Source: Macrostomum lignano
Taxonomy: Eukaryota
Assembly: GCA_002269645.1 (NCBI GenBank)
Contig: NIVC01002847.1
Span: 1-64,000 of the forward strand
Reading direction: 5' to 3'
Length of the DNA stretch: 64,000 nt
Positions 40,484 through 56,115 of this stretch are shown piece by piece (position 1 is the stretch's first letter; each line of letters begins with the position of its first letter). The notes under the pieces were generated by a model, which made no database searches, had not been told where the DNA came from, and saw only the letters and a list, made by a program, of their open reading frames with translations. Position numbers and translations under genes: made by a program.

Positions 40484-41205
40484 AGTAGAAGGCATGAGGG
40501 GGCTTTTGGGACAAAATTTTTCACATCCTCCATAATCCCATTAAATCCATCCATATTATCCCCGACAGAATCAGAAAAAAAGGGGGGTCGCACTCGCTCA
40601 CAAAACGTCCTCCATAATCCCATTAAATCCATCCATATTATCCCTGACAGAATCAGAGCATAACAGGTGTCCTACTTACTCCGAAAACTTCGAACATAAT
40701 CCCATTAAATCCATCCATATTATCCCTGACAGAATCAGAGCAGGTGTCCACTGATACCTGTTATGCTCACTCTGGACACCTGTTATGCTCACTGACACAG
40801 ACATAATCCACTGACATCCACCCATAGCATCTTCGAAACAATCAGAAAAAAATCTGCATTCTTCTCCCCACATTCAATTCGCAACATGAAACCAGATCCC
40901 AAAGACTTTAAATCATCAGCGCAGGGTCCTTACCCCTTGAAAAAAATAAAAAATTCTCAAAAAAAAGTTTCCAGTTGTCTCTCCAGGTTCCTATTATACT
41001 CAGCCTCATCCATTGTACAAATCCAAGTACCGATGCAAACTAGAATGCAGCGAATACATGAGAAAATATTGGCCCGACGTTGATATCAATGTCCCTAATA
41101 TTAATCAAGCACTTAAATCTCACTGGTTTTATGAGTATGGAGTAACCTATGTAAAAGATTACGACAGCTACTATAACTTTGCAGAAATCATTAAGCAATT
41201 GCGTT
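40484..41205 (+). repeat. Left terminal inverted repeat
   Basis: Reverse complement of ~55333-56115; three 82-bp-spaced internal units. Confidence 0.9.
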
Positions 41206-41207
41206 AA
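40968..41207 (+). CDS. Small TIR-encoded ORF, left paralogue (ATG missing in this assembly)
   Basis: FPVVSPGSYYTQPHPLYKSKYRCKLECSEYMRKYWP...YDSYYNFAEIIKQLR, colinear with the right-TIR ORF; AAAAAAAAG where the right copy has AATAAAAATG. Confidence 0.55.
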   Translation, partial: FPVVSPGSYYTQPHPLYKSKYRCKLECSEYMRKYWPDVDINVPNINQALKSHWFYEYGVTYVKDYDSYYNFAEIIKQLR

Positions 41208-41462
41208 AAAACATACTGAGTTCATTTATTCGCAATTATATTTACATAAAACAGGAGGAAATAAGGAGGAAAGAGCAGACACTGAGTGTGCAGGGCTATC
41301 CGGCTGAGAATTTTCTTCCGCGACGTGCAAGCTTAGTTGCAAGGCTGGAAATGAATAAGGTAGAGAAAGAACAAGATATTGTAGATCCTCGCACAATCCA
41401 AAATCGATATTCTTCGGATCCAGAATCATATTGATTTTCCTCCCGGTCATTTTGTGAACAGC

Positions 41463-41895
41463 ACTTTCCTGATTGTCAGGAATTCCTGTATTGTCAGGAA
41501 TTCCTGTATTGTCAGGAATTGGCACGAGTTTAAAAAAATCCTGGAGATCCAGGAAAGTGTTTAGAAGACTACTATGAGTGGCTTACATTGATAAAATCCT
41601 GGAAAAAAATTTAGTAAAAGACTTTCCTGTATTGTCAGGAATTCCTGTATTGTCAGGAATTGGCACGAGTTTAAACAAAATCCTGGAGATCCAGGAAAGT
41701 GTTTAGAAGACTACTATGAGTAGCTTACATTGATAAAATCCTGGAAAAAATCCAGTAAAAGACTTTCCTGTATTGTCAGGAATTCCTGTATTGTCAGGAA
41801 TTGGCACGAGTTTAAAAAAATCCTGAAAAAATCCTGGAGATCCAGGAAAGTGTTTCGAAGACTACTATGAGTAGCTTACATTGATAAAATCCTGG
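41463..41895. repeat. Three 140-160-bp tandem units containing palindromes TTCCTG-N6-CAGGAA and TCCTGG-AGAT-CCAGGA
   Basis: Unit starts at 41463, 41621, 41762. Confidence 0.9.
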
Positions 41896-42260
41896 AAAAT
41901 GGTTGATAACTAAGAAGTGAATCTTCATCAGCAACAAATGGTCGGCGAAGTTCGTCAAACACCATTTCGGTTCTCATGGCGTAGTTGCGATCCTGGGTCT
42001 CCATGGCCGCTCTTGAACGAATTCGCTGGTTCTCAACTTTTTCATTGAAGAAATTGTGGAGAACTTCTTGAATTCGCTCTGATGCCTGTTCGTCGGCATC
42101 TAATCCTTCAATAAGGCGACCGTGGAGATTTTCTAGGTCGGTCGGGTAGAACGTAATTTTTTGTGAACTAAAAACAAAGATTTAATTAAAATAAGAGATT
42201 TTTCAATTCTTAACACAGGATAGAATTTCAGTAAGTAAAAAATGAATAAACTTACAACAT
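41876..42260 (-). CDS. Putative intron-containing 98-aa viral accessory gene (exons 42260-42256 and 42167-41876)
   Basis: ATG TT|gtaagt ... tttgtttttag|T TCA; 88-nt AT-rich intron; second exon open for 97 codons. Not in the ORF track. Confidence 0.55.
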
Positions 42261-42529
42261 AATGAAATCAGCAGCCACAACGGTGCAGTATTGCGTGACG
42301 AAGAACGTGAGCGAGCAAAATGAGCTGAATTTTCTTGCTTGCTTTAACTAGCTTCCGAGCGATCGATTCCCTACACCCGCTTCCTTCCCTCCAGTTGTCA
42401 AAGCGGAAAGGAATGCACGCGTGGAACAGGGCTGCGCTCCCTCAGCAAATAGCAGTTACCCCACCCCTTTTCAAAATGCAGCTGTTGCGTTTGGCTATGG
42501 CTGAGAATAATAGTTAAGCCCTTCCCGAC

Positions 42530-54444: not shown

Positions 54445-54464
54445 ATATTTTTTATGTGAAAAAA

Positions 54465-55328
54465 ATGGAAGCGATTGCTGAAAGACTAAATAATATTATT
54501 TCGCACTCCAAGGAGAGCATTCCTATTACAATAACTGGGCGAATAGATGACTCAAACGGGATATTTATTCAAAAATTAGAGCAGGCGATTCGCCTGGATC
54601 CAGGTTCTAATTACCATGTCTATCTTAACGACTTCACTGGTTGGTCAAACGTTCCCAATGTGACGGCAGCAAATAATAAGTTTTATTACAAATGGAAAGG
54701 TGCAGCAGCAGAACCTGTGGTATTCCCTGTTAGCACGCAAAGTGTGGATACCTACAATTACTTTCTAGAAAACGTATTTACTAAAAGAGGCCATTTTGAG
54801 ACACCTGATGCGAGTAAGCCAGATAAAAAATTGTTCCCTGTCAAACTATCCTATGATCTCACTGTAATGAGAGTGGTCATGCAAGTTCACAAAGATGCGG
54901 AGGTTGAGTTTAAAGATGACACTTGGTATAGGGAATTGGGATTCGTGTAGAAAGTTTATAAGGCAGAATCCACAGCGCGGACTGTCACTCAAGCATCGGG
55001 GGCCGTTAGCATGGCCCGGGAAAGTGTACGCGGTTTGTTCTTAGCACCCAATATAGCAGACATTGTAAAGGGTTTGAATATTCTAATCAGAACTAATCTC
55101 AGTCTTGATTGGGTATTTAAGGGAAAGCGAACGAATATTTTGTACAACATCTCCAACTCTGTAGCTGGAGGACAGATGGTGGTAGAGAAACCAAATCCAG
55201 TGAAAAGAGTTGTATTGAGTAATAAGGAGATTCACGAGATTGTGCTACAGTTTGAGACTGAAGATGGGGTGGGTGTTGATTTCAACGGTGAAGAGTTTGT
55301 ATTGACGTTAATCATTGAGAGAATGTGA
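54465..55328 (+). pseudogene. Minor capsid protein (penton-like) with one in-frame TAG at 54948-54950
   Basis: YHVYLNDFTGWSNVPNVTAANNKFYY ... RELGFV* then 20 open codons in frame into the second ORF ending GVDFNGEEFVLTLIIERM. Confidence 0.72.
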
Positions 55329-55332
55329 GAAA

Positions 55333-55569
55333 TCACAATTGCCTAATGATTTCTGCAAAGTTATAGTAGCTATCGTAACCGTTAATGACTACTCCATGTT
55401 TTTCAAACCAGTGTCTTTGGAGAGCTAGATTAATATTAGGGACATTGATATCAACGCCGGGCCAATATTTTCTCATGTACTCGCTGCATTCTAGTTTGCA
55501 TCGGTACTTGCTCTTGTAATTAGGCTCGTGCGCTTTGTAATAAGAACCTGGAGAGACAACTGGAAACAT
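55333..55569 (-). CDS. Small TIR-encoded ORF, right paralogue, 78 aa
   Basis: AAAA-ATG start; conserved against the left copy with many synonymous differences. Confidence 0.65.
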   Translation of the reverse strand: MFPVVSPGSYYKAHEPNYKSKYRCKLECSEYMRKYWPGVDINVPNINLALQRHWFEKHGVVINGYDSYYNFAEIIRQL

Positions 55570-56115
55570 TTTTATTGAGAATTTAATTTTTTTCAAAGGG
55601 TGAGCACCCTGCGCTGATGATTTAAAGTCTTTGGGATCTGGTTTCGTGTTGCAAATTGAATGTGGGGAGAAGAATGCAGATTATTTTCTGATTGTTTCGA
55701 AGATGCTATGGGTGGATTTCGAGCTGTTATGCTCAGAGCATAAACCCTCAGAGCATAACAGTAGGACACCTGTTATGCTCTGATTCTGTCAGGGATAATA
55801 TGGATGGATTTAATGAGATTATGGAGGACGTTTTGTGAGCAAGTGCGACCCCCCTTTTTTCTGATTCTGTCAGGGATAATATGGATGGATTTAATGGGAT
55901 TATGGAGGAGGTTTTGTGTGCAAGTGCGACCCCCCTTTTTTTCTGATTTTGTCGGGGATAATATGGATGGATTTAATGGGATTATGGAGGAGGTTTTGTG
56001 AGCAAGTGCGACCCCCCTTTTTTTCTGATTCTGTCGGGGATAATATGGATGGATTTAATGGCATTATGGAGGACGTGAAAAATTTTGTCCCAAAAGCCCC
56101 CTCATGCATTCTACT
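55333..56115 (-). repeat. Right terminal inverted repeat
   Basis: Four 81-82-bp-spaced units plus a perfect 13-bp hairpin at 55749-55782. Confidence 0.9.

Follow-up and report, generated by a model that had tools for sequence, protein, structure and literature searches.

The first 64,000 nucleotides of contig NIVC01002847.1 of Macrostomum lignano, hereafter the window, contain a Polinton insertion of 15,632 bp at positions 40484-56115. With a probability of roughly 0.8, we regard it as a young, now decaying provirus of the Alpha-adintovirus type, one member of a family whose structure may be explained by extrachromosomal replication. By itself, the window copy is an ordinary, decaying family member, and it is the family rather than this copy alone that makes the Polinton replication model testable. 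Two features bear on that model: terminal inverted repeats (TIRs) that resemble those of other copies more closely than they resemble each other, and palindromic insertions that carry one end of the element twice and have lost the other.

The boundaries and perfect target-site duplication (TSD) proposed in the initial annotation hold. The element begins with AGTAG and ends with CTACT, giving the AG...CT termini of Polintons, and GGCCAT directly flanks both ends (40478..40483 and 56116..56121, forward strand) as a perfect repeat of the 6 bp characteristic of Polinton TSDs. A homologous site on another contig (L100), found through a search with the left flank, is element-free and contains GGCCAT only once; the pair in the window is thus a true TSD. 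The flanks of this empty site are nearly identical to those in the window, at 99.1% across 1506 bp on one side and 98.0% across 1721 bp on the other; the insertion is younger than the split of the two sequences, and thus young. Its TIRs (40484..41201, forward strand, and 55336..56115, reverse strand) are about 720-780 bp long, within the 0.1-1.5 kb known for Polintons, and share just 84-91% identity.

The window copy has 13 distinct genes, one of them present in both TIRs, so that the earlier figure of about 15 was near the mark, and Pfam domains together with a capsid model support the earlier reading of a Polinton with a virion module. The Polinton core comprises a retroviral-type (rve) integrase with an open frame (43060..44097, forward strand; PF00665, E 1.8e-10) and a protein-primed DNA polymerase of family B (pPolB, hereafter PolB) of the Alpha class with an EndoVII/HNH insert, lying in four frame pieces (44701..48507, forward strand; PF03175, PF02945). 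Packaging and maturation are represented by an A32/FtsK ATPase (50514..51317, reverse strand; PF04665, E 1.4e-5), frameshifted here and 266 aa long in sisters, and by an adenain-like protease with an open frame (48597..49004, forward strand) whose Pfam match is borderline at the cut-off (PF00770, E 2.3e-4). The gene at 53158..54444 (forward strand) has only a weak Pfam match (PF21738, E 5e-4), but its product is predicted to be a double-jelly-roll capsid: a model built from a 55-sequence alignment scored 90.5 in the predicted local distance difference test (pLDDT), and Foldseek matched it to the capsids of Sputnik, iridovirus, PBCV-1, mavirus and PRD1, the best being Sputnik (E 1e-18, template modelling score 0.66). 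The jelly-roll fold expected of the capsid protein named in the initial annotation was therefore recovered.

Motif searches of the assembly returned 557 termini, 228 capsids and 236 integrases, with none for the controls, which corresponds to a family of about 230-280 copies, a figure inflated to some degree by duplicated haplotypes. Among the 98 best matches to the capsid, protein identity was 97-98%. Pairwise ratios of nonsynonymous to synonymous differences (pN/pS), calculated from natural open frames only, were 0.10 for the capsid (29 copies), 0.11 for the ATPase, 0.17 for the integrase, 0.19 for a putative penton, 0.21 for the protease, 0.22 for PolB (6 copies), 0.24 for a phospholipase A2 (PLA2; 16 copies) and 0.27-0.28 for a pX-like protein and two ORFans, C and Q. 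Ten of the 12 genes tested thus fall between 0.10 and 0.28, while ORFans A and B reach 0.43 and 0.51, ORFan B being the fastest-evolving gene. These values show purifying selection on the capsid, ATPase, protease, PLA2, integrase and PolB. Together with close copies in the hundreds and homologous sites that lack the element, this selection supports recent activity elsewhere in the genome, and the earlier suggestion of an active family holds for the recent past. Of 24 sequencing runs listed as matching, 20 contained at least half of the query words, all of them from one organism and spread over 7 studies; no RNA run was among those listed, which speaks neither for nor against expression.

The ends of individual copies were compared in 33 two-ended copies drawn from the first 100 of the 557 termini and from the best capsid matches. 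A perfect TSD was present in 23, among which two pairs each represent one locus assembled twice. TIR cores were compared in 11 TSD-matched full-length copies (five more were left out; one core was unalignable), and in seven of these, the window copy included, they lie nearer to the TIR of another copy than to their own partner. The left TIR core of the window copy is 97.7% identical to a TIR on another contig (C522), as against 86.4% to its partner, and the right TIR belongs to a different TIR lineage. Across 16 TSD-matched copies the mismatch between left and right ends rises inward, from 1.5% in the outer 40 bp and 1.3% in the outer 120 bp through 3.0-3.7% up to 400 bp to 8.4% up to 550 bp and 12% up to 690 bp; the window copy is an extreme case, its mismatch beginning at the eighth base. 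Separate left-specific and right-specific TIR types were considered and rejected, since left and right ends turn up together in each clade of a TIR tree whose bootstrap values are rough. Age was likewise rejected as the source of the divergence, because the TIRs differ by 9-16% and the flanks of the window copy by merely 1-2% from the empty site.

A second class of unusual structures was found through inverted gene pairs in the match lists. Three independent, TSD-bounded palindromic insertions have one end of the element doubled in reverse complement and the other end lost, which is the structure of copy-back genomes. Two of these duplicate the capsid end and lack the integrase and all or most of PolB: C1652 (11.3 kb, with arms of 4.7 kb at 99.85% identity and a perfect TSD), of which C276 is a second assembly, and C633 (13.1 kb, arms of 4.85 kb at 99.3%, perfect TSD). 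The third, C975 (11.5 kb, arms of 5.4 kb at 99.2%, perfect TSD), duplicates the PLA2-integrase end and lacks the structural genes, and its homologous site is empty. Two were met among the first 100 of the 228 capsid-motif places and one among the first 100 of the 236 integrase-motif places, or about three per 100 insertions. Three further candidates (C827, C957 and C1098) were rejected as adjacent, nested or rearranged elements. At another locus (L007:1619-2874, on C2344) part of the putative penton gene, in inverted orientation, brings the left TIR to a length of about 1.2 kb, and this copy is intermediate between an ordinary TIR and a copy-back. The three copy-backs have 72-84% of the unit length, though the search could have caught much shorter ones, and their sizes hint at a lower packaging limit of the kind that adenovirus has, a virus for which end repair is also known. 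The hint is weakened by short TSD-bounded deletion forms of 0.64-3.7 kb with differing breakpoints. Six short two-ended derivatives (L069, L070, L071, L072, L068 and L090) measure 0.64-0.87 kb and 3.6-3.8 kb; the three of 3.6-3.8 kb keep the capsid-end genes and differ in their breakpoints.

It is plausible that unlike ends and palindromes share an origin in replication. From the known biology of the family, the protein-primed polymerase would copy the linear genome extrachromosomally, starting from the inverted ends of that genome; terminal protein and vOTU domains are described on pPolB proteins (PMC11161782). The ATPase would then package the genome into the jelly-roll capsid, the adenain would mature the particle, PLA2 and a pVI-like peptide may aid membrane crossing, and integration would produce the 6-bp duplication. 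If genomes of at least three TIR lineages replicate together, they could recombine, and displaced single strands might fold as a panhandle, so that one end serves as template for recopying the other over a variable distance. Short recopying would leave TIRs that are identical outside and different inside, an absence of recopying would leave a chimera such as the window copy, and long recopying would produce copy-back defective genomes that are missing PolB or integrase and undergo integration in trans. At about even odds, we favor, narrowly, the view that the unlike ends and the palindromes are products of extrachromosomal replication and recombination before integration. The stronger proposition, that intermediates of polintovirus replication have left a germline fossil record in this genome, with recombinants integrated before homogenization of their ends and copy-backs formed by template switching in the panhandle, then packaged and integrated in trans, is put forward tentatively, as somewhat less probable than not.

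Several observations weigh against this account. The family is known here from genome sequence rather than from particles, free linear DNA or RNA. Only four of 97 scored copies retain a stop-free PolB frame of at least 1200 aa, and the pN/pS values reflect only such frames as are naturally open. Each of the two copy-back junctions searched has a single exact match in the assembly, which gives no sign that copy-backs multiply, and two of the rejected candidates (C827 and C957) proved to be other arrangements. The deletion forms indicate that rearrangement without a size limit occurs, and the 10 of 33 two-ended copies that lack a perfect TSD show the family to be subject to ectopic recombination or mis-assembly. 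An inward mismatch gradient is also expected if the host converts inner tracts after insertion.

A close rival, to which we give slightly less than an even chance, is that unlike TIRs and palindromes formed after insertion, when breaks were repaired from the element's own opposite TIR or from another copy. This has a precedent in Galileo of Drosophila, in which break repair has been proposed to extend TIRs and to yield chimeric copies; the same source states that inverted-repeat expansion has already been reported for Polintons (PMC3573991), so that the present forms may not be the first on record. The single-locus copy-back junctions, short homology at one of them, the many deletion forms and a mismatch gradient that spares the ends all agree with such repair. 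The gradient, however, is compatible with an origin before or after insertion, and other features are harder to reconcile with repair in place. In Galileo, chimeras whose two TIRs are unlike lie between flanks that do not match (PMC3573991), whereas the M. lignano chimeras keep perfect TSDs, and the TIRs of the window copy differ from the eighth base inward although its flanks diverge from the empty site by just 1-2%. Nor was an ordinary element seen at a site homologous to any of the three palindromes: the site of C975 is empty, the duplicate of C1652 is also a copy-back, and the site of C633 lies in a tandem repeat and is uninformative.

A different objection concerns the mode of spread rather than the structures. 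The family might now spread only as an intracellular self-synthesizing transposon with its virion genes as passengers, a possibility in keeping with a family known from sequence rather than from particles or expression, and with small deletion forms that carry TSDs. We consider it improbable, since constraint is strongest on the capsid (0.10) and the ATPase (0.11) and exceeds that on PolB (0.22, 6 copies). Constraint on virion genes has been taken as evidence for particle-borne spread (PMC8097293), and on that argument, which we adopt, the family would spread by virions. Least probable is that unlike TIRs, palindromes and frameshifts are assembly artefacts from collapsed repeats, fold-back reads or homopolymer errors: contigs do frequently end within copies, 10 of 33 copies have no perfect TSD and indels are enriched near homopolymers, but the palindromes have distinct left and right flanks, direct TSDs and non-palindromic centers, one was assembled twice and another has an empty homologous site, TIR differences of 10-16% beside unique flanks exceed polishing error, and most indels are not at homopolymers.

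The window copy was initially described as complete and intact, a description that does not survive. PolB is split over four frame pieces, three of its frameshifts being private to this copy, frameshifts also interrupt the ATPase and ORFan A, the frame of the putative penton is broken by an internal stop, and the TIRs are only 84-91% identical. It therefore falls outside the "intact" Mavericks of PMC8097293, which have open core ORFs (open reading frames), TIRs and a TSD. Four of its six private frameshifting indels lie in or beside runs of at least four identical bases, against a background of 17%, and across the family 61 of 231 single-copy indels lie near homopolymers, so part of the window frameshifts may be sequencing errors. 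Neutral decay, at a flank divergence of 1%, would likewise be expected to yield a similar number.

The remaining genes are mostly accessory. A stand-alone parvovirus-type PLA2 (42530..43030, reverse strand; PF08398, E 9e-14) is a candidate entry protein, and an adenovirus pX-like core protein with a Cys-rich tail (44114..44578, forward strand; PF05829, E 4.9e-7) follows the integrase. The four ORFans A, B, C and Q gave no significant family match in Pfam, and the roles suggested for them are conditional. ORFan A (49009..49664, reverse strand; 237 aa in several sisters) is probably a two-helix membrane protein; in the ESM Atlas it resembles unnamed clusters from animals and viruses (score 0.93-0.94), a weak resemblance because recognition fell below the threshold. 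ORFan B (49772..50497, reverse strand), with an 84-bp repeat and weak coiled-coil Pfam matches only, may be a fiber-like coiled-coil protein. ORFan C (51513..52016, reverse strand; weak colicin match only, E 0.031) has Gly-Gly-type cleavage motifs ahead of an amphipathic helix and may be the pVI-like membrane peptide. ORFan Q (51910..53127, reverse strand), a Gln-rich protein of 405 aa with no usable match in ESM Atlas or PHROG, is a core-protein candidate. The gene adjoining the capsid (54465..55328, forward strand; 287 aa in sisters) is a putative penton, or minor capsid protein, from its position and a C-terminal motif; none of five tests confirmed it, with no match in Pfam, PDB or PHROG and a pLDDT of 35 for the single-sequence fold. 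Both TIRs carry an inward-pointing gene of about 78 aa without a known family (40950..41207, forward strand, and 55333..55569, reverse strand, the right copy encoding 78 aa). Its frame is open in 38 of 66 TIR ends, and a pN/pS of 0.30 among 32 distinct ends indicates purifying selection.

The left TIR also contains 82-bp tandem repeats, and the variable region next to it holds 141-bp tandem repeats with 18-bp subrepeats (41466..41899) that may act as a cis signal. A match of at least 700 bp to this variable left kilobase occurs in only one fetched sister stretch. In five sisters (L009, L013, L016, L017 and L019) the region between left TIR and PLA2 holds differing accessory ORFs of 107-303 aa, and the seven proteins searched gave no significant Pfam match. 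The ATPase-ORFan block (window 50484-53483) falls into two lineages (about 78% versus 95-98% identity) in a family whose PolB is 95-99% alike, a pattern that points to module exchange within the family; the element interior, like the ends, is mosaic. Three of 44 capsid matches lay below 88% identity. One sister has a 2.4-kb insertion within PolB (L009:4540-6966), whose ORF we take to resemble a DIRS-type tyrosine recombinase, and Polintons inserted in or beside other Polintons, with inversions, were seen at L027-L029 (C1098), L030-L032 (C2829) and L091-L093 (C957).

The window copy is inserted in a host repeat with internal inverted repeats (window 39796-40483 and 56116-57248), other copies of which are uninterrupted; the inverted pairs around the element are 40149-40357 with 56802-57029 and 39796-39870 with 57173-57248. 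Nearby are an 800-bp element (38745-39541) resembling a miniature inverted-repeat transposable element, with inverted ends of about 200 bp at 88% identity, and a roughly 1-kb stretch of tandem repeats whose short period runs in multiples of 20 bp (35005-36057). Host genes in the window encode ING (10081-11196) and GnT-I (61906-63783), each domain inside one long open frame, a long interspersed nuclear element with reverse transcriptase and RNase H (22148-24418) and one exon of a tyrosine kinase (6257-6793).

For animal Polintons, replication is a model, and their particles, according to PMC8097293, have not been observed. Natural particles and free linear DNA could well be sought in a young family such as this, with its few hundred copies, empty homologous sites and strongly constrained capsid genes. 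The unlike TIRs and the palindromes bounded by TSDs offer a handle on the replication mechanism that needs only a genome, and they caution against the use of TIR identity for dating; copies like that in the window would escape TIR finders whose mismatch limits are tight (2% in 10.1101/2023.10.06.561300). If the genome is indeed a fossil record of replication intermediates, genomes alone would suffice to test whether Polintons replicate by a protein-primed panhandle, co-infect and pass as virions, and TIR divergence becomes unusable for dating insertions.

The element can be placed among the Alpha-adintovirus-type Polintons (polintoviruses) by its predicted proteins. PolB matches PF03175, and 7483 of the 7999 candidates scored lie at E<=1e-20; corals, molluscs and insects supply thousands of relatives of a 434-aa piece, at about 40-44% identity. 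This piece is 38% identical over 97% of its length to the PolB of an adintovirus from the coral Corynactis, which belongs to the Alpha panel of Fig. S2 in PMC8502044, and an N-terminal piece aligns to residues 150-273 of the same protein, Cys motif included (E 2e-13), without a Pfam match to the OTU protease domain that Alpha PolBs carry at the N-terminus. PolB is thus of the common invertebrate Alpha class, as assigned by pairwise identity rather than a tree, and a Beta-class reading from motifs was dropped because the named match sits in the Alpha panel. The capsid is the distinctive part of the element. A word-indexed protein search gave 10 matches, all unnamed metagenomic proteins at 70-77% and 43-44% identity (43-46% over the searches together), and among 105 representatives full-length proteins outside this small unnamed clade reach at most 31%. 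Exact look-ups of seven proteins of the element found none of them in the collection searched. Ten clusters that were looked up had no informative name, adintovirus names did not occur among the sequence matches, a protein labeled "Adintovirus sp." appeared in the structure search only at rank 12 with 10% identity, and none of 17 pattern matches in IMG/VR was confirmed as a relative. The earlier suggestion of an undescribed lineage is therefore supported for the capsid, although PolB is of a common class. A literature search, which took in neither the founding Polinton paper nor Repbase, returned no account of this capsid lineage or of copy-back Polintons. What is distinctive is the divergent capsid; the gene plan and most accessories are of the Polinton and Alpha kind already known. 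The supposedly unusual accessory set belongs mostly to the published Alpha repertoire, in which PLA2 with a pX domain is characteristic of virion modules and fiber genes are shown (PMC8502044).

Compared with the Alpha adintoviruses of Starrett et al. (PMC8502044; Corynactis, Mayetiola; Polinton group 2, pPolB2), the element shares the Alpha PolB, the rve integrase, adenain and the FtsK/A32 ATPase, a jelly-roll capsid, the PLA2 and pX domains, a candidate fiber-like gene, and TIRs with a TSD, and an HNH insert in pPolB has been described for the same polymerase class (PMC10748475). It differs in that PLA2 and pX are separate, oppositely oriented genes flanking the integrase instead of the PLA2X fusion that is characteristic, though not defining, of the Alpha group, and in having a capsid without a named close relative and a conserved 78-aa gene within both TIRs. 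With vertebrate Mavericks (PMC8097293) it shares a length of 13-25 kb, TIRs, a 6-bp TSD, mostly defective copies and purifying selection on virion genes. Those families have a median of 8 and a maximum of 287 copies, which places the 230-280 copies of M. lignano at the top of the range, and here the copies are young and close to one another, unlike those of vertebrates; the passages considered here make no mention of copy-back forms or unlike TIRs. Mavericks are also reported to have expanded in planarians (10.64898/2025.12.11.693146). Copy-back defective viral genomes similarly have one end duplicated in reverse complement and the other lost; these viral forms depend on a helper (PMC13506859), but they are described there mainly from negative-strand RNA viruses, whereas the forms described here are integrated, inherited DNA with 5-kb arms. 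Galileo, finally, shares variable TIR length, inner sequence drawn into the repeat, TIRs of different subfamilies and tandem repeats within TIRs; its TIRs reach about 1.26 kb and its unlike-TIR chimeras have no TSDs (PMC3573991), while in M. lignano the arms extend to 5.4 kb and the chimeras retain their TSDs.

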